64,000 bases of DNA from Pseudomonadota bacterium (GCA_021819435.1 JAKARB010000014.1:19085-83084), one strand, 5' to 3'; positions 439 to 21,601 are shown, numbered from the stretch's first letter. Translations and numbers: made by a program. Notes: generated from the letters alone by a model not told the origin.

Positions 439-939
439 ATGAAATCCACACTGACCATCCTCGCCACCAGCCTCGCAGCGCTGTTGAGCGCACCCGCATT
501 CGCCGAGACCCCCCTCAGCGTTGACAACAGCTGGCACTACTTCTCCTTCGGCAACGTCGGCTCGACCTTCAGCAACCAGCCGTTCACGTTCACCTTGACC
601 GAGGCTGCCGTTCTGCGCGTGACCGACGCATACAACTCGGGCGACCAGTTCGAGGTCTTCAGCAATGGCAATTCGCTGGGCCTGACCTCCACCCCGACTT
701 ACGGCCATGACATCGGTGCTGACTACGCGGCCGCCTTCTTGAGCGAAAACTTCAGCCATGGTCAATGGACCCTGGCCGCAGGCACCTACAACATCACAGG
801 CGTCACCATCCTGTCGCCATACTCTGCGGGCGGCGCCGCCATCTCTCTGTCGGCCGTGCCAGAGCCCGAGTCCATCGCCCTGATGCTGGCGGGCGTGGTC
901 GTTCTGGGTGCAGGACTGCGCCGCCGCAACACACGCTGA
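439..939 (+). CDS. PEP-CTERM sorting domain protein
   Basis: Signal peptide; C-terminal VPEPESIALMLAGVVVLGAGLRRR (PEP motif, TM helix, Arg cluster). Confidence 0.9.
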   Translation: MKSTLTILATSLAALLSAPAFAETPLSVDNSWHYFSFGNVGSTFSNQPFTFTLTEAAVLRVTDAYNSGDQFEVFSNGNSLGLTSTPTYGHDIGADYAAAFLSENFSHGQWTLAAGTYNITGVTILSPYSAGGAAISLSAVPEPESIALMLAGVVVLGAGLRRRNTR

Positions 940-9868: not shown

Positions 9869-10621
9869 ATGCCCGCGAACTACGCACGCTACCTCGTCGG
9901 CCGCCACCGCAGCGTCCAGGCCAACCGCCAGCTCGGCTGGACCCTGGCCTTCGTCGCGGGCGCCATCAACGCGGGTGGCTTCCTGGCGGTGCACCAATAC
10001 ACCTCGCACATGACCGGCACGGTTTCGTCCTTGGCCGACAACCTGGCGCTGGGCCACCTCGATCTGGTCATCGACGGCATCGTCGGCGTGCTGTCTTTCC
10101 TGGCTGGAGCCATGTGCAGCGCGCTGATGGTGAACTTCGCGAGGCGACGCCAACTCAGCAGCGAGTTCGCGCTGCCGCTAATGCTGGAGGCCTTCCTCAT
10201 CCTGTGCTTCGGCCTGCTCGGCTCACGCCTGAGCGAGTTCGAAGGCCTGCTGGTGCCTTTCACCGTGGTGCTGCTGTGCTTCATCATGGGCTTGCAGAAC
10301 GCCGTGGTGACCAAGCTGTCTCACGCCGTCATCCGCACCACCCACATGACCGGCATCGTGACCGACCTGGGCATCGAGCTGGGCAAGGCCTTGTACTGGA
10401 ACCGTCGCGAGGACGAGCCCCCCGTGCGCGCCAACTTCGAACGCATGACCGTGCTCGGCGGCCTGCTGCTGGCTTTCACGGGCGGCGGCGTGATTGGCGC
10501 GTATGGGTTCAAGTTCGTGGGCTATGCGTCCACGGTGCCGCTGGCGGTGTTGCTGGCGGCGCTGGCGCTGGTGCCGGCGTGGGATGACTTTCGCAACCGG
10601 GGCGCCAGACTGTCAAGGTGA
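9869..10621 (+). CDS. YoaK / DUF1275 family membrane protein
   Basis: AFVAGAINAGGF, TSHMTG, MGLQNA, IRTTHMTGIVTDLG. Confidence 0.92.
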   Translation: MPANYARYLVGRHRSVQANRQLGWTLAFVAGAINAGGFLAVHQYTSHMTGTVSSLADNLALGHLDLVIDGIVGVLSFLAGAMCSALMVNFARRRQLSSEFALPLMLEAFLILCFGLLGSRLSEFEGLLVPFTVVLLCFIMGLQNAVVTKLSHAVIRTTHMTGIVTDLGIELGKALYWNRREDEPPVRANFERMTVLGGLLLAFTGGGVIGAYGFKFVGYASTVPLAVLLAALALVPAWDDFRNRGARLSR

Positions 10622-11647
10622 TTCGGTCTGCACAAGGCATTCGGCCATCGCCGGAGACGCCTGGCAACGTGCCTTCTTCATCAGGTTCAGCGTGCGCCAA
10701 CTGTAGAGGCCGGCCTTCGCCCCGTCGATGCGCCCCTCGCGCAGCACGTCCACATAAGGCTGTACCTGATCGGGCGGCAGCTCGTACCAGAAGCGGTCCG
10801 GCACCTCGGCCTCGGCTCGCTGGATGACCTTCAACGCCCACTCGTGCAGGCCAGCCCAGTACACGCGAGATGGCGCCCCGAGAGACGCCGGGACCTGCGC
10901 ACGGTTGAAGATGAGCTGCAGCGTCGGGATCATGACTGGCATGCGCAGCACGCCGCCCTTGCTGCCCATGCCCCGGGCCAACTCGAAGGGCCTGAAAGTG
11001 ACCGCTGGCATGTGGATGAGATCGACCAGGCCGTTGTTGAACTTGGCGCCCACATTGGTCACGTCCGACGAGATCGCCTGCGCGCCCATTTTCTGGACCA
11101 GCATGGCCTGGACACGGTCATGGTCGAAGACAGCCACCCGCTTGCCCGCAAGGCTGTGGGGTGTGATTTCGAAACGCTCGCGCATCATCGGGTAAGCCGC
11201 GCCAACCGGCATGATGCCCCCCACCTCGTAACGCCCTTCGATCATCAGTGAGGCGGCCTGTGGCGCCGCAAACACTTGGATGATCTTGCGCAGCACCTCG
11301 TAGCTGGCCGCAAGGTCGACCTTGCCATCACGCACCACCACGGCGGAGCCCAAGCTGTCGAGCGAGCCCGTGACCTGATTGAAGGACCGCGCCCGAAAGC
11401 CAGTGAGGATGGCTGCAGCGCACTGGCCGACGCGGAAGTCCTCGGCCACCACCCGCTCATCGGTGAAGGTGCGCACCTCAAAATGCACACCTTCGCGGGC
11501 CATCGCTGCGGCGTAGTCTTGGGCCAGTGCGTGCACATCGCCTCCCTTGCCGAGCAGGTCCCAGGCGCACAGCAGCGGGCCAGCCCACGCAGACCCGCTG
11601 AGCCCCATCAAGAAGGCCACGGCCCAACGATGGCTTGTCGAATTCAT
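10613..11647 (-). CDS. Putative solute-binding protein, AdeT/DUF6091-like (TRAP DctP-like fold)
   Basis: Signal peptide; CAWDLLGKGG, TDERVVAEDFRVGQC, KFNNGLVD, KKARC motifs. Confidence 0.75.
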   Translation of the reverse strand: MNSTSHRWAVAFLMGLSGSAWAGPLLCAWDLLGKGGDVHALAQDYAAAMAREGVHFEVRTFTDERVVAEDFRVGQCAAAILTGFRARSFNQVTGSLDSLGSAVVVRDGKVDLAASYEVLRKIIQVFAAPQAASLMIEGRYEVGGIMPVGAAYPMMRERFEITPHSLAGKRVAVFDHDRVQAMLVQKMGAQAISSDVTNVGAKFNNGLVDLIHMPAVTFRPFELARGMGSKGGVLRMPVMIPTLQLIFNRAQVPASLGAPSRVYWAGLHEWALKVIQRAEAEVPDRFWYELPPDQVQPYVDVLREGRIDGAKAGLYSWRTLNLMKKARCQASPAMAECLVQTESP

Positions 11648-11716
11648 GATCCCTCCTCGGTTGATGCGGATCAACGCTGTCGAGCGATGCGCCCCGAGAT
11701 GCGGGCGTCAAACAAC

Positions 11717-11744
11717 TTGACAGACAAGCGAACGAATTTACACT
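11717..11744 (+). promoter_or_regulatory. sigma70 promoter of the copper operon (nearly leaderless transcript)
   Basis: TTGACA (11717)-16 bp-TACACT (11739), 8 nt before ATG 11753, no Shine-Dalgarno sequence. Confidence 0.7.
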
Positions 11745-11752
11745 CCGCGACC

Positions 11753-12142
11753 ATGCCATTGTCCGTTCGTCGTCGCATCACCTGGATCGCCGCCCTGGCC
11801 GTCCTGATGATTGCGCTCGCGCCGGCCATCTCGCAATGGCTGCTGGCGCAACGCAACCCAGGCCTGAGCTGGGTGGCGGTGTGCTCGAGTACCGGCATGC
11901 GCTGGGTCGCTGTCGGCCAGGCCACACCCGATCACCCAGCTGATCAACAAGGCCTGCATGCCCAGTCGCATTGCCCGGCCTGTGTGCTGCATGCCCATGA
12001 CATGGGCCTGCCCCCCCAGCCCCTGCGCGTGCAGGCGCTGAACACCGAACGGGAGGCCCTGCCCTTCCTGTTCCTGCATGCGCCCCGCCCGCTTGCGGTG
12101 TGGTCGCCTGTGCTCGCCCGCGCCCCGCCGGCCGTGGTCTGA
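11753..12142 (+). CDS. DUF2946 protein, CruR-like copper-responsive leader ORF
   Basis: Signal/TM helix, VCSSTG, HCPACVLH (CxxC), C-terminal LARAPP (RAPP arrest motif). Confidence 0.85.
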   Translation: MPLSVRRRITWIAALAVLMIALAPAISQWLLAQRNPGLSWVAVCSSTGMRWVAVGQATPDHPADQQGLHAQSHCPACVLHAHDMGLPPQPLRVQALNTEREALPFLFLHAPRPLAVWSPVLARAPPAVV

Positions 12143-12254
12143 GAACACACCCTTCCCCTTTTTATTTTTATCTTGATCGATCACCGCTTGCGCGCGTGAG
12201 GCCTGGGTGCGTCCTGGCCCGCGTCAGCGTCTGCGCGTGACGGGAGCTTTCACC

Positions 12255-12893
12255 ATGAACAAGCAAACCACCTTCCGCACCGCCGCCCTCGCCTTGGTGC
12301 TAGGCACCTTTGCCAGCGTTGCATCGGCCCATGGCAGCCTCGATGGCGAATCGCTGTTGATTGAATACGGCGTTGACTTCGGCTCAGGCTTCACGGCCTT
12401 GAGCAGCCGCACGGTCACCGTGGGCAGCGGGCTCGAAGTCAGCGGCTGGCCGCTCAGCAGCGCCAAGGACATCCGCTGGAACATCGATTTCAGCGGCGCC
12501 AACATCGCCTTCACCTACGTGGGCAACGACGACTTCATGAACGTCGGCACCTTCGCGATGCAGGGCTTTCGCATCAGCGGCATGCCCTTCGAAGTCGAAG
12601 GCGCGCTCGTCACGAACACGGAGTACGTGCCCAACGTGAAGGGCAACCTGATCGAGGGATTCGACCCGACCACGGACCTGAGCTTCACGCCCAGGACGGT
12701 GTCGGTCAACCTCAACGAGTCGATGTACCACCACCACGCCATGACCGGCATGGGCGACCCGGTGCGCGATGCGATCAAGCTGCACCTGCACCTGGCGCCC
12801 GCCGTGCCTGAGCCATCGGGCTGGTTGCTGGGCGGCATCGGCTTGCTGGGCGTGGGCGTTCTGCGTCGGCGCAGCGTTGGATGCCGCGCTTGA
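12255..12893 (+). CDS. His/Met-rich PEP-CTERM protein
   Basis: Signal peptide ending ASA followed by His; internal SMYHHHAMTGM; C-terminal VPEPSGWLLGGIGLLGVGVLRRR. Confidence 0.85.
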   Translation: MNKQTTFRTAALALVLGTFASVASAHGSLDGESLLIEYGVDFGSGFTALSSRTVTVGSGLEVSGWPLSSAKDIRWNIDFSGANIAFTYVGNDDFMNVGTFAMQGFRISGMPFEVEGALVTNTEYVPNVKGNLIEGFDPTTDLSFTPRTVSVNLNESMYHHHAMTGMGDPVRDAIKLHLHLAPAVPEPSGWLLGGIGLLGVGVLRRRSVGCRA

Positions 12894-12938
12894 TGCCGAC
12901 GGCCCGATGAGGGCCTGACAGAAGCTTGCCAAGCTCCA

Positions 12939-12968
12939 CCGTCCCCGCCGCCGCTGTGGCGGGGACGG
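12939..12968 (+). other. Perfect 11-bp GC hairpin between the PEP-CTERM and receptor genes
   Basis: CCGTCCCCGCC-N8-GGCGGGGACGG, no U-tract. Confidence 0.6.
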
Positions 12969-13011
12969 CCTGCGGCATGCATGCGCCAACGCATTCATCA
13001 CCCACGCAACG

Positions 13012-15057
13012 ATGTTCAACTTCAGGAAGTTCAACCACCTCTGCCATGGGGCAACGGCGATGGTCCTGTCAGCCCTGCCCACCCTGTCGAGCGGCGAGAC
13101 ACTCACCGACGAAGCGACCTTGCCGGAGATCAGGGTGCAGGCCAGCAGCCCATCGGATCCCTTGCGCCCCAGCCTGCGCATCCACGGGCAGGACACGCAA
13201 GACGACCCCGCCGAGCAACTGCGCCAGGTCAACGGCGTGCGCGTGATGCGGCAGGCCGGCACCGCCGGGCTCGTGTCGGTGCAAGGCTTGAGCGGCTCGC
13301 GCGTGCCGGTGCTGCTCGATGGCTTGTCGATCGATGGTGCCTGCAACCATGGCATGGACCCGGCCACGTCTTACCTCACGCTCGACAGCATCGACCGCCT
13401 CACGGTGCTCAAAGGCCCGACCACCGTGCGCCACGCGGGGGTCTTCGCGGGTGCGGTGCTGGCCGAGCGCGTCCAACCCACCACCGATGCACCAGCCAGC
13501 ATGGCATTGCAAGCGCAAGTGGGCCGATTCGGCGAACGCATGCTGGCCGCTGAAGCCCTGCTCAACACCGAGCCGCTGTGGGCACGCGTCAACAGCCGCC
13601 GCAGCGAACGCGACGACTACCGCGACGGCCAGGGTCGCAGCGTGCCCTCGCGCTTCAACAAGCGACAGAGCATGGCCGACTTCGGCTGGCGCATCGGCCA
13701 GCACGACACCCTGACCGCCGAGGTGGCGCAAAGCGATGGCGAGGCCGTCTACCCCGCCTTCCACATGGATGGCACGGCCTTCCGCCAGAACCGCCTGGGC
13801 GCCGGCTGGCAGGCCCGCGAACGCCTGCCGTGGCTGGAGCTGATCGAGGTGCGCGCCATGGAGCAGCGCATCCGCCACGCCATGGACAACCACAGCCTGC
13901 GCGAGATGGAGCCGCTGAGCTACGACGGCGAAGCTCGCATCCGCGAGGACATGTTCCAGGACGTCAACCGGCGCCAAGTCAAGGCCGAGGCCGTGATGCG
14001 CCCGGCAGATGACCAGCGCCTGACGGTGGGCACCCAATGGGCGCGCGACGACCACGATGCCGTCAACCACCTCAGCAGCGAAGCCTGCGTGGATTTTGGC
14101 TTGCCCATGTGCTTCACGCAGGACCCGGGGCCGCAACCCTTCTACCAGGTTCGCCAGCGCAAGCGCGGCGTGTACGCCGAATGGAGCCTGGAACTCGACG
14201 CCTGGCAGCTGACCCTTGGCAGCCGGCGCGACCACGTTGGCACGCGCACGGGCGCCATCCGGTCTTTCGCCGTCAACCCGGTGGTGAAGTCAGGCGAGAA
14301 CGGGCGCACCGAGCATGAACTGAACCAGCAGGTGGCCCGCCTGGACTGGCGTTGGGATGCGGCCTGGCAGGCCCACCTGGCATGGGGCCAGGCCCAGCGC
14401 GCACCCGACCCCATCGAGGTGGGCAGCGTGGACGCCTTGCGCTTGAACCCGGAAACCAACCGCGAGTTGCATGCCGGGGTGAGCGGTGCTTCGGGAGCAT
14501 GGCAATGGGGGGTCGATGCCTTTCACAGCCGCATCGACGACTTCATTTTGCTGACCAGCGGCACGACCGCGCGCAACGTGCAGGCACGCCGCGTCGGCTG
14601 GGAGCTCGAAGGCCGATGGCGATGGGCCAGCGGTTGGTCGAGCGGCGCCGCATTCAGCCGCGTGCGCGCGGACAACCTGAGCGAACGCCGCCCGCTGGCC
14701 CAGACACCGCCCGACGAGTTGCGCCTGAACACCGACTGGCGCGAAGGCCCCTGGCAGGCGCGCATCGAATGGCGCGGCGCCGCCCGGCAAGACCGCTACG
14801 CGTTCAACCAGGGCAACACCAACGGCCTCGACCTCAACGAGGCCACGCCGGGCTTCAGCGTCGTCAACGCCTCGGTGCGACGGCAACTGCCCTGGCAAGC
14901 CAGCATCGCCATCGGCGTGGACAACGTCTTCGACCGCGCCTACGCCGAACACATCAACCACAGCGTCGACCGCAGTTGGGCCGCGCAGGGCTCCAGCAGC
15001 ACCAGGGTGCCCGAGCCCGGGCGGCGCTGGTGGTTGAAGTGGATTCAACGACTTTGA
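13012..15057 (+). CDS. oprC: TonB-dependent copper receptor, OprC-like
   Basis: Plug motif DGACNHGMDP (CxxxM) and RHAMDNHSLR resemble OprC Cu ligand motifs; GVDNVFDRAYAEH, EPGRRWW C-terminus. Confidence 0.82.
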   Translation: MFNFRKFNHLCHGATAMVLSALPTLSSGETLTDEATLPEIRVQASSPSDPLRPSLRIHGQDTQDDPAEQLRQVNGVRVMRQAGTAGLVSVQGLSGSRVPVLLDGLSIDGACNHGMDPATSYLTLDSIDRLTVLKGPTTVRHAGVFAGAVLAERVQPTTDAPASMALQAQVGRFGERMLAAEALLNTEPLWARVNSRRSERDDYRDGQGRSVPSRFNKRQSMADFGWRIGQHDTLTAEVAQSDGEAVYPAFHMDGTAFRQNRLGAGWQARERLPWLELIEVRAMEQRIRHAMDNHSLREMEPLSYDGEARIREDMFQDVNRRQVKAEAVMRPADDQRLTVGTQWARDDHDAVNHLSSEACVDFGLPMCFTQDPGPQPFYQVRQRKRGVYAEWSLELDAWQLTLGSRRDHVGTRTGAIRSFAVNPVVKSGENGRTEHELNQQVARLDWRWDAAWQAHLAWGQAQRAPDPIEVGSVDALRLNPETNRELHAGVSGASGAWQWGVDAFHSRIDDFILLTSGTTARNVQARRVGWELEGRWRWASGWSSGAAFSRVRADNLSERRPLAQTPPDELRLNTDWREGPWQARIEWRGAARQDRYAFNQGNTNGLDLNEATPGFSVVNASVRRQLPWQASIAIGVDNVFDRAYAEHINHSVDRSWAAQGSSSTRVPEPGRRWWLKWIQRL

Positions 15058-15111
15058 CTTTGATGGCAGGATGAGACCCTGCGTCCACCCGTGTTCAACC
15101 AGGAGACCAAC

Positions 15112-15618
15112 ATGAGTTCACACCGCTTTGCCCCCCTCGCATCCGCCATCGCCGCGCCGCTGCTCGCCGCCACGCTGGCCACCGCGGCGTTCAGCGCCCA
15201 CGCCCAAGTCGATGTCAGCAACGCATGGGTGCGCGCCACGGTGCCAGGTCAACAGGCCACCGGCATGTTCGCCACGCTCACCGCCAAGCAGGACAGCACG
15301 CTCGTGAGCGCCAGTTCGCCGGTGGCCAGCGCCGTCGAAGTGCACGAGATGAAGATGGAAGGCGACGTGATGAAGATGCGCGCCGTGCCCGCGCTGCCCC
15401 TGCCCGGTGGCCAGGCCGTGGCGCTCAAGCCCGGCTCCTACCACGTGATGCTGATGGGCCTGAAGAAGCCGCTGCCTGATGGCGGCACGGTGCCCGTCAA
15501 GCTGGTGGTGGAGGATGCACAGAAGAAGCAGACCACCATCGACCTCAAGGTGCCGGTGAAGAAGGCCGGGCCGGCCCAGGCGGCGGAAGAACATGGGCAT
15601 GAGCACCACCAGCATTGA
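15112..15618 (+). CDS. Copper chaperone PCu(A)C
   Basis: AWVRAT, VEVHEM...MKM...YHVML motif, His-rich tail EHGHEHHQH. Confidence 0.93.
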   Translation: MSSHRFAPLASAIAAPLLAATLATAAFSAHAQVDVSNAWVRATVPGQQATGMFATLTAKQDSTLVSASSPVASAVEVHEMKMEGDVMKMRAVPALPLPGGQAVALKPGSYHVMLMGLKKPLPDGGTVPVKLVVEDAQKKQTTIDLKVPVKKAGPAQAAEEHGHEHHQH

Positions 15619-15678
15619 AGCTGACGGGGTGCGCCCCGCCCGCTCACGCGCGTGCAAGCGTGCCCTCAGACGTGAGCC

Positions 15679-17886
15679 TCAGAAACGCACACTGGCCGTG
15701 AGATGGGCCTGCCGCCCCGGCATGGGGTAGTAGGTCTGGCTGTAGGCCAGCGTGCTGTAGCGCTCGTTGAGCAGGTTGCTCACACCGAGCGCCAGTTCCA
15801 GGTCATCCAGCCGATGCCTCACCACCGCGTCGACCACCTGGTAGGCGCGCAATCGCGCCAGCGGCGGGTTGTCTGCATCGGTGGCGTTGCCATCGCGGCG
15901 CGGCCCCACATGGCGCACAGAAAGAGCCGCCTGCCACGCGGTGCTCGGCTGCCAGTCCAGCGTGAGGCTGGCCGTTGTTCTCGCCACCAGCGGGATGTCG
16001 CCCGAGCGGCCGGCCAGGCTGGGCACCAGGTAGCTGAGCATGCCGTTCAGGCGCCAGCCACGCGCCGGCTGCCACCGACCCGCGAGCTCGATGCCCTGGC
16101 GGCGTGAGGCCTCGTCGCGGTTGCGATTGACCTCGTCGCCATTGGGTTCACGGCCGTAGTAGATCTCGTCCTGCAGGTGCAGGTCGAACCAGGTCATCGA
16201 CCATGAAAGCCGCTCGCCCGCTCGCTGTCGCCAGCCCAGTTCCTGCGTCACGCCGCGCTGCGGCCGCAGGTTCTGCGCGGCCTTGTTGAGTTCATCGAGG
16301 TTGGGCGCGCGGAAGGTGCCGTTGCGACGCGCGAAGAAGCTGGTGTCGGCGCCCGGCTGCCAGACGACGCCAAGCTCGCCCAACCGGTTGAACCAGTCGC
16401 CAGCCATGGGCGCCTGCGTGTCTTCGTAGGCATAGGGCGAACACACCAGCACCGGGAAGGGCGCAAAAGCGCAATCGCGCGACCACTGCTGGGTTCGACG
16501 TGTCGACTCGAAGTGATCCCAGCGGGCGCCGGCCTGAACAGTGATCGCCGAATGTGGGCTCAAGGTCGTCGCCAACGTCCAGGCGTTGGAAGCGGCCTCA
16601 CCTTGCAGACGCGTGTGGTCTGGAGCGCTGGAGGGACGGTCCCAGCGCGCGTACTCGCCGTCCATTCGGCTCCAGCCCAGCGACACCTCCTGCCTGCGGC
16701 CCGCCAGGTCGAAGCCCACACGGTGCTTCAGTTGGTGATCCCAGCGCTCGGAGGTGGTGAGTTGTTCCTGCTCGGACAGCGGTCGGCTGGCATCAACGCC
16801 GATGTAAAAGGGGTTGCGCCGCTCGCGGTGGCTGCTGGTCCAGGTGAGCTGGCCGAGCGTGCCGAAGTCGAGGCTTGCACCCAGGTCTTGTCGATCCAGC
16901 TCCGTGCGTCCGCCGTCCAACGGGGCCTGGGTCGAGCGCAATTCACGCTCGCTGCCCGACTCGAATACGTCGCGCGAGACCGGGCCAGGCAAGCCGTAGC
17001 GGTCACGCTGTCGGGTGGCGCGCGCATGGGCATCGGCTTTCACGTCGCCGAGGGAGGCCTGCCAGCGCAAGGTGAGTGCCGAACGCGTGCTGTCGAATTC
17101 GCTGTTGTTGCGCCAGCCGGGTTCTTGCCCACGGTGCAGTTGCAGCACGGGCGTCCAGGCGCCGATCCGGGTCGCGAGTTGGAGATCACCAATGCGTTCA
17201 CCCAGGGTGCCCACGCGCACCTGTGCTCGCCCGCGACGTTCGCCATCGTCGAGCTCGGGCAGGGTGTTGATGCGTACCACGCCGGCCACCGCGCCACTGC
17301 CGTGCTCAATGGCGCCGCCGCCACGCACGACTTCGATCTGGCGCACATCGCTCAGCGACAGCGATGACAAGTTGGCACCTGAAAGATCGTTCTCGTTGAG
17401 GACCACGCCGTCGACCACGATCAACACGTTGCTGCCGGCGGACTCGCCCATGCCACGCATGTCCAGTGTGGCGCTGCGGTCGTTGCCGAAGTAGCTTTGC
17501 AGCGGCAGGTTGGCTTCGGTGGCCAGCAGGTCGGCCACCGAGCTCGCGCTGGAGCGAGCGATGTCGCGCGCGGTCAGCACCGTGACGTTGCGCGCGGCGT
17601 CGGCCGATGGCGCAGCGGCTTCGGAGCCAGCTTGTGCACGCACGCGGACCTCGGGCAAGGTCGCCTCGGCGTCCACCACCTGCTGCCCAGGCCGTTGCTC
17701 AATCGGTGGCGCGGGCGACGTGCCCGCGCCCTGCGCCAAGGCAGCCCCCCAGATCCATGGCCACAGCACACCTGTCGCCATGGCAATGGCCGGCCTCGGC
17801 CAGATCGCCGGCAGCGCCCGCCGCCCCGCAGCACCCGCAGCACCCGCAGCACCCGCAGCACCCGGAGCGCGCGGGCCGCGCCTCAT
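15679..17886 (-). CDS. TonB-dependent receptor, probable cobalamin receptor (BtuB-like by context)
   Basis: Plug (DMRGMG..NVLIVVDGV), barrel, C-terminal Phe; last gene of the riboswitch-led operon, ATGA-coupled to the DUF4465 gene. Confidence 0.85.
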   Translation of the reverse strand: MRRGPRAPGAAGAAGAAGAAGRRALPAIWPRPAIAMATGVLWPWIWGAALAQGAGTSPAPPIEQRPGQQVVDAEATLPEVRVRAQAGSEAAAPSADAARNVTVLTARDIARSSASSVADLLATEANLPLQSYFGNDRSATLDMRGMGESAGSNVLIVVDGVVLNENDLSGANLSSLSLSDVRQIEVVRGGGAIEHGSGAVAGVVRINTLPELDDGERRGRAQVRVGTLGERIGDLQLATRIGAWTPVLQLHRGQEPGWRNNSEFDSTRSALTLRWQASLGDVKADAHARATRQRDRYGLPGPVSRDVFESGSERELRSTQAPLDGGRTELDRQDLGASLDFGTLGQLTWTSSHRERRNPFYIGVDASRPLSEQEQLTTSERWDHQLKHRVGFDLAGRRQEVSLGWSRMDGEYARWDRPSSAPDHTRLQGEAASNAWTLATTLSPHSAITVQAGARWDHFESTRRTQQWSRDCAFAPFPVLVCSPYAYEDTQAPMAGDWFNRLGELGVVWQPGADTSFFARRNGTFRAPNLDELNKAAQNLRPQRGVTQELGWRQRAGERLSWSMTWFDLHLQDEIYYGREPNGDEVNRNRDEASRRQGIELAGRWQPARGWRLNGMLSYLVPSLAGRSGDIPLVARTTASLTLDWQPSTAWQAALSVRHVGPRRDGNATDADNPPLARLRAYQVVDAVVRHRLDDLELALGVSNLLNERYSTLAYSQTYYPMPGRQAHLTASVRF
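17825..17864. repeat. 9-bp tandem repeat (CCCGCAGCA)x4 in the receptor signal region
   Basis: Seen directly; encodes GAAGAAGAAGAAG in frame. Confidence 0.9.
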
Positions 17887-18680
17887 CGCTGCGCCCGGCG
17901 ACGCAGGCCGATGACGCCCACCACCCCCACCAACATCATCGCCAGCGACGAGGCTTCGGGCACAGCACTCACGGCTGACACCGCCAGGTTGTCGATGGCG
18001 AAGTAGGCCGGCGTGTTCATGCCGAACGAGCCCACGTCAGAAGAGGTCAACTCGAACTTGAGCGAGGTGACCGTGCCGAGCGAGCTCAGGTTCACGCTGG
18101 TCCAGTTGCTGACCACGTGGTCCAGGCTGTTGTCGGCGAAACGGTAATCGGCCAGGTAGAAGTCGACGCGGCCGGTTTCCTGGCCGGTGGTGTTCAGGCC
18201 GATGAAGGTGAGCTTGAGGAAGTCGGCGTCGTTGCCGCTGTCGCCGCCGAACTTCTTGGCGAATGAGTCGCCTTGCAGCATCGACAAGGCCGCGTACGTG
18301 GTGTTGGTGACGTCCACGCTTTCGACCACGGAGGGCGCGTCCAGGCTGATCACGGGCGAGCCGATGTAGGCCAGCGCGTAGTTGGCCGAACCGCCCGCGC
18401 CCGAGCCGGCGTAGGCGCTGAACTGGTTCTCGAAGCCCGGCGTGGTGGTGTCGGTTTCGTTGGAGTAGGTCCAGCCGCTCCAGCAGCAGCCGCCGCCGTA
18501 ATCGGTGAAGTCGTGGTTGAAGCTGGCGGCGCCGCTGGTGAACTGGGCCGAGGTGCCGGGGAAGAAGTGGCTGTTCGCGCTCAGCGGCAGGTCGTCGAAG
18601 GTGCTGACGGTCACGGCGGCTTGCGCGCCCGAGGCCAGGCCGGCTGCCAGCAGGGCAGCGGCGATGCGGGAGGTGTTCAT
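17883..18680 (-). CDS. DUF4465 domain PEP-CTERM protein
   Basis: WSGWTYSN, NQFSAY, VTNTTY, FYLADYR, GMNTPAYFAIDNL (DUF4465) plus VPEASSLAMMLVGVVGVIGLRRR. Confidence 0.88.
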   Translation of the reverse strand: MNTSRIAAALLAAGLASGAQAAVTVSTFDDLPLSANSHFFPGTSAQFTSGAASFNHDFTDYGGGCCWSGWTYSNETDTTTPGFENQFSAYAGSGAGGSANYALAYIGSPVISLDAPSVVESVDVTNTTYAALSMLQGDSFAKKFGGDSGNDADFLKLTFIGLNTTGQETGRVDFYLADYRFADNSLDHVVSNWTSVNLSSLGTVTSLKFELTSSDVGSFGMNTPAYFAIDNLAVSAVSAVPEASSLAMMLVGVVGVIGLRRRAQR

Positions 18681-18716
18681 GATGATGGGTCTTTCGGATT
18701 CGGTTTGGAGGACGGC

Positions 18717-19532
18717 TCAGGCTGCGCGGCGACGACGGCGCTGCAGCGCGCCCATGGCCAGCAGGCCCGCACCCATCAGCGCCCAGGTCTCGGGTTCGGG
18801 CACCGGCGCAAAGTGGATGACGCCGACGGCATCGAGATCGAAGCCGCCGCTGCCGGTGGTGGGGTACGGGTCATAGATCGGGTGCGGGCCGCCGTACTGC
18901 GCGGGGTAGTTGTCGAACTCCTGGCCACGGCCGACCACGTCGACGATGCGCACGTAGCGCACGTTGTCCACGTCCAGGCCCGCCTTGCCGGCCAGCGAAT
19001 CCAGGTCGAAGGGCGTGCCGAAACCCTGGCGGTACTTGCCGGCCAGGCCATCGATGTTGGTCGGGTCGATGCTGCCGAAGCCGCCCACCGGCGCGGGGGT
19101 GAACGAGTAGCTGGGGAAGCGGAAGAAGTCGACGCCGTTGGATGAGACCTCGACGAAGCCCAGCTCCAGGAAAGTGTCGTTGAAGCTGTTTTCAAAGACC
19201 GCGAAGTCAGCACCCGCGCCGTTGTAGATGGCGCCATCGAAGGTCAGGGTGATGCGGCCAGCGTCGCCCAACACGACGATGTCGGTGGAGGTGCCTTGGG
19301 CCTTGCCCAGGGCCTTCTCGGGCGTTTTCCATTGCGCGTCGACGTTGGGACCCGGCTGGTAGTCCTGCCAGCCGGTGGCCCATTGCACGATGGCCGGGCT
19401 GTCCTTGCTGATGGCCGTGGAGCCGGGCTTGCCGGCGGCCGGGGCGAAAGGACCGGCCGCGTGGGCGGTGCCCAGGCAGGCCAGGGCCAGGGTGGCCGCG
19501 CAGGCCGGGACTGAGAGAAGCTTGAATCGCAT
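18717..19532 (-). CDS. PEP-CTERM cell-surface protein with BtuH-like domain
   Basis: [47 protein letters not shown] plus [26 protein letters not shown]. Confidence 0.8.
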
Positions 19533-19634
19533 GTTGTTCCTCCGGGCACCCACCATCCGTGGGCGCATTCGAGCCAACCGGCTGAACACAGCAGAGGAAC
19601 AAGACAGCACGCGCACACCCGGTCGGGCCGCATG

Positions 19635-19667
19635 AAAAGGCCGAAGGCGTGTCGTCACCGCCTCGCC
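19635..19667 (-). terminator. Candidate intrinsic terminator in the riboswitch expression platform
   Basis: On the minus strand, AGGCG/CGCCT stem followed by CGGCCUUUU between the aptamer and the start codon. Confidence 0.45.
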
Positions 19668-19694
19668 GCCCACCGCAGCAACCGGGTCCATGCT

Positions 19695-19910
19695 CCAGGC
19701 CGGTCTCCGGGCTCGCGAACGCCTTGTGGGCCAGCGATCCGCCTTCCCATGCTTCGCAGCACAGTGGCACCGTGGATCGCCTTGCTTCGCTTCACCGTTG
19801 CGGGGGCAGCGTCGGGATCAGCGAGCCTTGTTTGTCAAGCAAAAAGGCCCGCACACCGAACTTCCCGTTTCACCCTTGCAGACCGCTCGCGCGGCCCCAA
19901 GGACACCTGA
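19695..19910 (-). ncRNA. Cobalamin (B12) riboswitch
   Basis: Minus strand reads AGGTG...GGGTGAAACGGGAAGTTCGGTG...GCTGCCCCCGCAACGGTGAA...GCCACTG...TGGGAAGG...GAGCCCGGAGACCGGCC (B12 box); TACAAT -10 at 19921-19926. Confidence 0.95.
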
Positions 19911-20044
19911 GGCGGGGCGGATTGTAAAGCTGGCCCTGGGGTTTGCCCAGCCCCGCGTTCCGGGCCCCTGAACGGGCTCGGAACGTAGACTGGTGCTGGC
20001 GCGCTTGCGCCGCCCCCCCAATCAACACCCGCGCAGCGGCCCTC

Positions 20045-21601
<1,557 letters not shown>

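Follow-up and report, generated by a model that had tools for sequence, protein, structure and literature searches.

A 64,000-nt stretch of DNA from a Pseudomonadota bacterium (GCA_021819435.1 JAKARB010000014.1:19085-83084; hereafter the window) encodes a copper operon (+) and a vitamin B12 operon (−) that converge, each with its own cis-acting leader, PEP-CTERM protein(s), and TonB-dependent receptor (TBDT). We consider it probable that two independent operons for micronutrient uptake have here converged on a common set of three tiers: a cis sensor, one or more exported binding proteins, and a TonB-dependent receptor. The sensor would gauge the cell’s own supply of the ligand and shut off the operon after transcription initiation. 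One or two Sec-exported PEP-CTERM proteins, on or released from the cell surface, would capture the scarce ligand, namely cobamides in the case of a BtuJ-like (DUF4465) and a BtuH-like protein, and copper, via a Met/His loop, in the case of a protein termed here CuPEP. The ligand would then be passed to the co-encoded TBDT, which is BtuB-like or, for copper, OprC-like with the motifs CxxxM and HxM, and copper would proceed from the OprC-like receptor to the periplasmic chaperone PCuAC. We infer both the extracellular location of the binding proteins and the hand-off to the receptor. Expression confined to ligand scarcity, together with gene positions ahead of the receptor, would mark these as capture or relay proteins, not detoxification proteins.

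The operons meet tail to tail, with stop codons facing each other at 15618 and 15679. A sequence-only reading of this region had described the same arrangement, and the elements lie within a few bases of where it placed them, except that the end it gave to the region, 19910, is near but 15 nt short of the 5′ end of the riboswitch aptamer at 19925 (−). The window encodes exactly two TBDTs, both with PEP-CTERM gene(s) immediately upstream (two on the B12 side but one on the copper side, although that reading spoke of PEP-CTERM genes in each operon). Against PF07589 (cut-off 20.7), the three PEP-CTERM proteins score 21.0 (CuPEP, a narrow pass), 20.8, and 25.8 bits; against TIGR02595 (cut-off 16), the two B12-side proteins score 17.4 (BtuJ-like) and 24.9. 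Only two sigma-70-like promoter matches occur in 11400-20100, each directly 5′ of one leader, where 0.3 would be expected by chance in 8.7 kb; both are matches to the consensus only. The convergent gap contains GC-rich hairpins (GGGGTGCGCCCC; CTCACG...CGTGAG) that lack U-tracts, and no canonical intrinsic terminator was found between the two operons. There is no exosortase (EpsH/Xrt) among the annotated genes of the window.

The copper operon has the order cruR, a 112-nt intergenic region, CuPEP, TBDT, and PCuAC (Table 1). The product of the first gene, a short upstream open reading frame (uORF), scores 71.5 bits against Pfam DUF2946 (gathering cut-off 23.7; E = 1.3e-19), and combines a hydrophobic N-terminal segment with CPAC at residue 74 and, after a spacer of 45 residues, RAPP at residue 123, which is followed by 3 residues and the stop. 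This geometry is identical to that of functional Bp2923/CruR of Bordetella pertussis, in which the CXXC motif, the 45-residue spacer, and the C-terminal RAPP matter by mutagenesis (PMC9426467). cruR is the first operon gene in the window and, with the gene order retained, in six relatives (L001, L003, L004, L005, L093, and L096; L-numbers denote the loci of relatives that were compared with the window). By analogy with the characterised homologue, a shortage of copper would lead the nascent CruR peptide to arrest the ribosome at RAPP, thereby blocking Rho, and copper bound to CPAC would relieve the stall and lead to termination ahead of the downstream genes. The RNA after the cruR stop is C-rich and G-poor, and U-rich (C/G = 2.75), becoming GC-rich later; a stretch of this composition would suit a region of Rho loading or pausing. 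The promoter-like −10 element ends 8 nt before the cruR ATG, with no visible Shine-Dalgarno sequence, so that the cruR mRNA may be leaderless or near-leaderless.

The copper-repressed CruR-BfrG-Bp2921 operon of B. pertussis likewise begins with a DUF2946 uORF, followed by an intergenic region, a TBDT, and copper-related genes, and PCuAC is among the families found in CruR-type operons (PMC9426467), as in the window. The window differs by the insertion of a PEP-CTERM gene (two in its relatives) between uORF and receptor, by a shorter intergenic region after the uORF (112 nt vs. 162 nt in B. pertussis), and by a promoter-like site that suggests a near-leaderless mRNA, as opposed to a transcription start site 45 bp upstream of cruR in B. 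pertussis. The term PEP-CTERM has 0 occurrences in the CruR paper (PMC9426467). The copper half of the system is a CruR-TBDT-PCuAC operon type to which one to two PEP-CTERM genes have been added.

CuPEP comprises a signal peptide (ASA|HG), a beta-sandwich core, a Met/His loop, and a VPEP tail (C-terminal sequence VPEPSGWLLGGIGLLGVGVLRRRSV), and the predicted model is a beta-sandwich with a predicted local distance difference test (pLDDT) score of 78.7. The family is rare: there are 37 close homologues, and a search of 1.84 billion proteins gave only 12 representative clusters at E<1e-30. Ahead of the tail lies the loop N-x-S-M-Y-H-H-x-x-M-x-G-M-G-D-P-x-R-D, which is invariant across 33 CuPEP-family sequences; distant members have Met/His/Cys-rich variants of it (e.g., NSMYHHQPMGSMGDP, DTMHHPHGMPGMPNTMGHD, and GSMCHAMAMGSMPSCMN), and weakly related outliers of ~185 aa that lack the loop form a separate group. 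CuPEP is encoded directly upstream of a TBDT in 10/10 evaluable loci (the window, L001, L003, L004, L005, L093, L096, L097/98, L099, and L100), and all 10 partner receptors carry CxxxM and HxM, which supports an obligate association of CuPEP, with its conserved soft-metal motif, with OprC-type receptors. Given the ligand chemistry of the loop and the genomic context, CuPEP probably binds copper.

The partner receptor in the window has OprC (6FOK) as its best PDB match (E = 2.3e-59, 204.7 bits), albeit as a distant relative, and the alignment places its C-N-H-G-M on C-P-N-R-M and its H-A-M on H-I-M of OprC. CxxxM-HxM is the copper site of Pseudomonas aeruginosa OprC, for which extracellular copper donors (azurin, CopM) have already been proposed (PMC8610252). 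The putative donor in the window is instead a co-encoded PEP-CTERM beta-sandwich with a Met/His loop and has no detectable relative of known function. The PCuAC encoded downstream has a His-rich C-terminus (EEHGHEHHQH).

The strongest alternative is that CuPEP serves as a periplasmic-side chaperone, inner-membrane-anchored or released, that carries Cu(I) from the receptor to PCuAC. Met/His-rich loops are typical of the periplasmic Cu(I) proteins CopC, PcoC, and CusF, the accessory gene product PCuAC is itself periplasmic, and at L099 the CuPEP family is grouped with a receptor followed by YcnI (DUF1775), PCuAC, and SCO1. Furthermore, the tails of CuPEP relatives are exclusively of exosortase type (PEP-CTERM or VPLPA-CTERM), never a type IX secretion system (T9SS) or lipoprotein signal, and so provide no independent proof of surface exposure. 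We nevertheless regard such a chaperone role as unlikely: the CuPEP gene precedes the receptor, like the BtuJ/BtuH-type genes in the B12 operon; ZepA of Anabaena, the sole metal-handling PEP-CTERM protein to have been characterised, occurs in the exoproteome but not in cell extracts; and exosortase systems are reportedly tied to export past the inner membrane (Haft 2006/2012).

All relatives encode a second PEP-CTERM protein, termed here Cu255, between cruR and CuPEP, which is absent from the window. Members of this family (337 homologues) are named by NCBI as FxDxF family PEP-CTERM protein, and their invariant features are a mature N-terminal His (A|HVSY) and DADWGDSH; one could speculate that these residues form a histidine-brace copper site. 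The absence of Cu255 from the window is a clean indel relative to L001, within the cruR-CuPEP intergenic region. An assembly artefact was rejected as the cause, as independent contigs (runs X1, X2, and X4; two studies) span the junction, and a tblastn search for a remnant of Cu255 in the window gave only tail similarity to another PEP-CTERM gene, at 439-939. A third PEP-CTERM family (237-243 aa), with the Cys/Met-rich motif YADCAxGGMMGxxCMTG, is encoded in Methylobacillus pratensis and an Azonexus metagenome-assembled genome (MAG), with Cu255-like genes alongside. Directly downstream of this family a TBDT with CPNHM in its plug is encoded, with PCuAC next in L101, and at L102 a gene for a 280-aa PEP-CTERM protein is situated ahead of the family's gene.

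The leader of the B12 operon is a cobalamin riboswitch on the same strand as the genes that it would regulate; the aptamer matches RF00174 over the full model (positions 1-189) with 96.9 bits (gathering cut-off 31.5; E = 6.6e-23), and 148 nt separate its end from the first ATG. Within this predicted expression platform, UUGUUCCUC (about 19598-19606) is complementary to the Shine-Dalgarno region GAGGAACAA just before ATG 19532, and the predicted minimum free energy fold pairs the two (−88.9 kcal/mol, z = −2.5). This pairing suggests translational control, in which the riboswitch, on binding B12, would mask the first gene's Shine-Dalgarno sequence, a mechanism proposed by analogy with characterised homologues, as for CruR. 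The Rfam score and the CruR motif spacing identify both leaders as genuine members of their families, which supports the earlier view that each operon has a cis-acting switch that operates after initiation.

The BtuJ-like protein matches Pfam DUF4465 (PF14717) with 190.6 bits (E = 3.8e-56), and the PDB entries that it matches are 9HMU (D5EK51-B12 complex; E = 2.9e-27), 4JQR, 9QPM, 9FCT, and 9I2L. DUF4465 is the BtuJ family, in which B12 binding has been demonstrated for eight divergent members, and a conserved HI-loop, (G/N)TPAY(F), carries the B12-binding tyrosine (PMC13398666). In the window protein this loop is MNTPAYF (MNTPAYFAIDNL), with the tyrosine kept; by homology, the protein would be expected to bind B12. 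It has a Sec-type signal (AQA|AV) and a PEP-CTERM tail, and lacks a lipoprotein anchor of the BtuJ1/J2 type, a feature that does not enter into the Pfam definition of the family.

The second B12-side protein, the product of the operon's first gene, has no Pfam passenger domain, and neither a PDB phmmer search nor a profile built from Betaproteobacteria only gave a match. The AlphaFold2 model (pLDDT 90.4) was compared with 350,542 PDB chains using Foldseek, and the top two matches, both marginal, were 8BLW_B (E = 3.9e-4) and 7BIZ (1e-3), each with prob 1.00; the former is the BtuG-BtuH fusion BT1490 and the latter BtuH2, and both contain the BtuH B12-binding domain (PMC13616437). Residues of this domain that contact B12 or Ca/Na include N399, Y510, W511, W577, and E406. 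A cross-phylum profile of the family gave a single match in the PDB at E<=10, again 8BLW_B (residues 435-472), which falls on the most conserved block of the family. We therefore designate the protein BtuH-like by fold, and on this modelled structure it may well bind B12. A Bacteroidales fusion protein was tried as a bridge to BtuH and matched only DUF4465 and T9SS domains. The BtuH-like proteins of the window, L034, L071, and L076 also have sub-threshold matches to NF033170 (‘LIC_13355 family lipoprotein’ of Leptospira; E ~3e-3 to 7e-3), which hints that the family also exists as spirochaete lipoproteins.

The receptor of the B12 operon has neither CxxxM nor HxM, and at E<=1e-8 its sequence matches in the PDB are confined to BtuB chains and to the plug (6.7e-11); its specificity for B12 is probable in view of the riboswitch and the partner proteins. 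The longest open reading frame overlaps the upstream stop by 4 nt and starts with a Gly/Ala-rich repeat (PGAAGAAGAAGAAG); ATG 17781, just before a normal signal peptide, is the more likely start.

BtuJ- and BtuH-type proteins are cell-surface binders of B12 that supply BtuB, as determined by experiment (PMC13616437; PMC13398666). The cobamide relay of Bacteroides thetaiotaomicron shares with the window a cobalamin riboswitch, a DUF4465 jelly-roll, a protein of putative BtuH fold, and a TBDT (PMC13616437; PMC13398666; PMC8941943), and domain fusions occur in both settings (BtuG-BtuH in Bacteroides; BtuH-like/BtuJ-like in relatives of the window). The window differs in that Sec signals and PEP-CTERM tails take the place of lipoprotein surface-export signals, BtuG beta-propeller and PKD domains are missing, the BtuH-like protein is related through its fold alone, the score of the receptor falls short of the BtuB equivalog cut-off, and the host is a mine-drainage betaproteobacterium rather than a gut Bacteroides. 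The B12 half amounts to the BtuJ/BtuH relay of Bacteroides with a new type of anchor and a far wider distribution than reported, BtuH homologues having been described as predominantly in Bacteroidota in a 2026 review (PMC13616437).

The BtuH-like family includes at least 7,985 matching database proteins and occurs in at least 563 species (in a one-genome-per-species collection). The following counts refer to the best-scoring 80 of these at least 563 species’ loci and are therefore biased towards closer relatives; they span at least nine phyla (Beta- and Gammaproteobacteria, Desulfobacterota, Verrucomicrobiota, Planctomycetota, Kiritimatiellia, Spirochaetota, Bacteroidales, Armatimonadota, Myxococcota, and Gemmatimonadales). 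Upstream on the coding strand, 63/80 loci have a cobalamin-clan riboswitch (39 by Rfam, 24 by nhmmer only), and 6/16 riboswitch-negative loci are cut at a contig end. A DUF4465 domain is encoded in the same cluster at 64/80 loci, and a TBDT is directly adjacent at 47/80 (47/63 outside Planctomycetota; 13/14 in Betaproteobacteria). Gene order varies by lineage, with BtuH-like (H), BtuJ-like (J), and TBDT (T) genes in the order H-J-T in Beta-, T-H-J in Gammaproteobacteria, and J-T-H in Desulfobacterota and Verrucomicrobiota, which argues for selection on co-expression, not for a frozen inherited block. BtuH-like/BtuJ-like fusions (~530-600 aa, with a single PEP-CTERM) occur in the nearest Aquabacterium relatives, whereas the window has two genes whose products each possess their own signal peptide and tail. 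Planctomycetota fusions are ~1,900 aa in length and riboswitch-controlled without an adjacent TBDT, and Bacteroidales fusions have a T9SS tail.

The sorting signals attached to these passenger domains differ between lineages. PEP-CTERM is found in Betaproteobacteria, Planctomycetota, and Armatimonadota, and in Verrucomicrobiota for the BtuJ-like protein; Gammaproteobacteria have VPLPA-CTERM (TIGR03370, above cut-off); Bacteroidales have a T9SS type-A domain (TIGR04183, 44.6 bits); and Bacteroides passengers have lipoprotein signals according to the literature. In Desulfobacterota, both passenger families have a Gly-rich stretch with Cys-Phe-Ile/Val within ~10 residues of the C-terminus (GGGGCFIATVF, GGDGGCFIDNLF), which gave no match to NCBIfam sorting-domain models (two L051 representatives scanned) and may represent a C-terminal signal, so far undescribed, for sorting or lipidation. 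Verrucomicrobiota BtuH-like proteins lack PEP-CTERM and possess an extra C-terminal segment that ends in ‘...[FY]WR[VL]...’ (12/15), and their BtuJ-like neighbours have PEP-CTERM. As the same passengers occur with different sorting signals, PEP-CTERM is a delivery route here and not the functional core, and the retention of passengers while the signal is swapped suggests that a surface or extracellular location is needed, rather than a particular anchor. The role that the sequence-only reading proposed for some PEP-CTERM proteins needs correction on this point, given the exchange with VPLPA-CTERM, T9SS, Cys-tail, and lipoprotein signals.

The same exchange bears on whether the PEP-CTERM proteins have a matrix, adhesin, or structural role and are merely co-expressed under nutrient limitation, without ligand binding. 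PEP-CTERM proteins were reportedly first linked to extracellular polymeric substances and floc formation; the tails of the window proteins weakly match floc_PepA, and the gene at 439-939 has no receptor beside it. However, DUF4465 is a demonstrated B12 binder with its binding loop conserved in the window, riboswitch association extends across at least nine phyla, the soft-metal motif is strictly conserved, and passengers are retained while the sorting signal changes, so that a structural role is very improbable.

Little more probable is a variant of the capture model in which the receptor would take up the entire PEP-CTERM proteins, as loaded protein metallophores. TBDTs are able to import proteins, and CuPEP is small (~160 aa mature). 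The authors of the ZepA study left whole-protein import open, and an azurin-OprC interaction has been reported (PMC10957091). Against this, the partner receptors retain the CxxxM-HxM site for ionic copper, Bacteroides BtuJ and BtuH pass B12 on and are not imported (PMC13616437), and the expenditure of one protein per ligand would be costly.

Capture outside the cell followed by transfer to the receptor, the reading that we prefer, has a precedent in ZepA, a Zur-regulated PEP-CTERM exoprotein for zinc acquisition in Anabaena (PMC10957091). ZepA is likewise a small secreted PEP-CTERM protein with metal-binding residues that is induced by metal scarcity; its gene neighbourhoods contain TBDTs and other PEP-CTERM proteins, and hand-off to an outer-membrane receptor was hypothesised by its authors (PMC10957091). 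It differs in ligand (zinc vs. copper or B12), in regulation (Zur vs. uORF or riboswitch), and in that the receptor is not co-operonic in Anabaena. The sequence-only reading had compared the PEP-CTERM proteins with the SusD and BtuG partners of Bacteroidota TBDTs. These are also accessory ligand binders encoded beside a TBDT, but SusD has a tetratricopeptide repeat fold and BtuG is a seven-bladed propeller, as opposed to the beta-sandwiches of ~160-215 residues here, and the anchoring chemistry is different. There is neither a SusD or BtuG beta-propeller fold nor evidence of a lid complex in the window proteins (7BIZ has no propeller, and the profile match at 435-472 of the 663-residue 8BLW_B falls within a protein described in the review as a beta-propeller joined to a BtuH domain), and BtuJ, BtuH, and ZepA are the closer analogues. 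Recast in this way, the proposal that some PEP-CTERM proteins act as micronutrient-capturing partners is partly supported: it gains from DUF4465/BtuJ and the putative BtuH fold, and for copper it extends to a binding that is probable.

The resemblance between the two operons could be coincidental, the operons being uptake systems without relation to each other whose tail-to-tail position is due to chance. The juxtaposition is indeed kept only in Aquabacterium-like relatives (L001, L003, L012, and L013), outside of which the copper and B12 cassettes each have other neighbours, and it looks incidental. The passenger domains are not homologous either: a common origin was examined with hhalign, whose alignments were confined to the PEP-CTERM tail or signal peptide, and duplication was rejected. 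Yet the combination of a sensor, one or more exported binders, and a TBDT turns up independently for B12 across many phyla, for copper together with three different PEP-CTERM families, and, in ZepA, for zinc, so the design is recurrent although the juxtaposition is incidental, and we judge coincidence to be the least probable of the explanations considered. The pairing of PEP-CTERM gene(s) and receptor on which the sequence-only reading built is conserved in relatives on both the copper and the B12 side, with other surrounding genes, in synteny comparisons centred on these families, which indicates that the layout is more than chance. Its notion of one shared design stands as to the recurrent layout; given unrelated passenger domains and a lineage-specific juxtaposition, the design is convergent.

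Several observations weigh against the reading that we prefer. Only DNA metagenomes carry the locus, and no RNA runs with it were found. For CuPEP, Foldseek gave no PDB relative better than E = 0.08 and there was no sequence match, and the Met/His loop is modelled with low confidence; with no relative of known function and a low-confidence loop, copper binding rests on residue chemistry and genomic context. The copper receptor, whose best NCBIfam family by far is TIGR01778, scores 284.3 bits, below the cut-off of this TonB-copper equivalog (472.45), and the B12 receptor is below that for BtuB (TIGR01779). The Foldseek matches to BtuH have a TM-score of ~0.4 and a root-mean-square deviation of 10-12 Å, with discoidin and CBM32 folds close behind, the discoidin/jelly-roll fold class is common, and the profile match to 8BLW_B is sub-threshold (E = 0.25). 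Absence of Cu255 from the copper operon of the window indicates that at least one partner is dispensable, and Planctomycetota homologues have riboswitches yet an adjacent TBDT in 0/17 loci. The fourth PEP-CTERM gene of the window (439-939, +; 166 aa; PF07589, 27.5 bits) has no TBDT neighbour, the 438 nt upstream being devoid of a receptor ORF and the next gene (1043-1819, −) encoding a DUF4124 protein. The final location of PEP-CTERM proteins is established for only a few (e.g., ZepA), and a periplasmic or inner-membrane-anchored role is possible.

Table 1. Features of the two convergent operons and of related loci (positions without a locus prefix are those of the window).
Feature	Position	Strand	Basis or remark
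Promoter-like site, copper operon (TTGACA, 16 nt, TACACT)	11717..11744	+	Consensus match
cruR-type uORF, DUF2946, 129 aa	11753..12142 (ATG to stop)	+	Pfam and motif geometry
cruR-CuPEP intergenic region, 112 nt	12143..12254	+	Composition; putative pausing / Rho-termination zone
CuPEP, 212 aa	12255..12893	+	PF07589; putative copper-capture partner of the receptor
OprC-like TonB-dependent copper receptor, 681 aa	13012..15057	+	C111-N-H-G-M115, H289-A-M291
PCuAC periplasmic copper chaperone	15091..15618, likely ATG 15112	+	Pfam PF04314, 2e-37
Convergent gap, 60 nt	15619..15678		GC-rich hairpins
B12-operon TonB-dependent receptor, 735 codons	15679..17886	−	Pfam Plug and barrel
BtuJ-like protein, DUF4465 and PEP-CTERM, 265 aa	17883..18680	−	Pfam, PDB
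BtuH-like protein, 271 aa	18717..19532	−	Signal peptide, ~215-aa beta-sandwich, PEP-CTERM tail
Riboswitch expression platform, 148 nt	19533..19680	−	Predicted
Cobalamin riboswitch aptamer RF00174	19681..19925	−	Rfam
Promoter-like site, B12 operon (TGGGCA, 17 nt, TACAAT)	19921..19949	−	Consensus match; −10 abuts aptamer 5′ end
Cu255 genes	L001:5218-5985, L003:2817-3587, L004:1667-2455, L005:1544-2404, L093:3956-4951, L096:4233-5090		
Third copper-operon PEP-CTERM family	L101:5811-6542	+	
Third copper-operon PEP-CTERM family	L102:8223-8936	−	
Fusion proteins of Aquabacterium relatives	L012:5001-6593, L013:4764-6566, L001:11518-end, L003:9165-end		
Further fusion loci	L037, L060, L069, L087, L088; L078, L089		
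Loci with the Desulfobacterota Cys tail	L035, L038, L048, L050, L051, L054, L061		
Verrucomicrobiota BtuH-like loci (among others)	L041, L065, L066, L070, L072, L073, L076, L084		

The window has a G+C content of 66.6%, the closest relatives in public data are uncultured Aquabacterium MAGs (one protein at 91% identity), and the exact locus sequence is present in mine-drainage and aquatic metagenomes. Divergent from cruR, the window encodes an AdeT1/2-type solute-binding protein (10613-11674, −; Pfam 4.5e-65); the corresponding position in L003 is occupied by an unannotated gene for a 355-aa protein (L003:1058-2125), and an AdeT-like gene lies ~4.5 kb upstream in L001 (L001:1-196). In L001, a 78%-identical relative, a NikR-like regulator (RHH_1 and NikR_C) and a further TBDT are encoded just upstream of cruR (L001:1922-4635), as part of a larger metal-uptake island with no counterpart at that position in the window.

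Aside from ZepA, we found no literature, mostly at the level of titles and abstracts, that ties PEP-CTERM proteins to copper or cobalamin uptake. As ZepA already shows a PEP-CTERM exoprotein that serves metal uptake, the idea as such has a precedent; the copper families, the association of BtuH-like proteins with B12 riboswitches, and the exchange of sorting signals appear to be undescribed in the searchable literature. We further propose, tentatively and with rather more doubt than confidence, that exosortase sorting (PEP-CTERM, VPLPA-CTERM) is the general route for TBDT capture partners outside Bacteroidota (in Proteobacteria, the Planctomycetes-Verrucomicrobia-Chlamydiae group, and others), that CuPEP, Cu255, and the third family are the first set of protein ‘cuprophores’ to feed OprC-type receptors, and that the BtuH-like domain is a pan-bacterial cobamide-binding domain present in at least 563 species.

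If so, the exosortase route would do the job that surface lipoproteins do in Bacteroidota. To our knowledge, most PEP-CTERM proteins have no known function, and a function would be assigned to a sizeable share of these thousands of proteins. The locus and its relatives offer a testable role for several PEP-CTERM families, as exported ligand binders that are induced by scarcity and serve a co-encoded receptor. With regard to the source of copper for OprC-type receptors, they provide a concrete candidate in the Met/His protein, which is co-operonic and under CruR control, and the BtuJ/BtuH relay would reach many phyla beyond Bacteroides.

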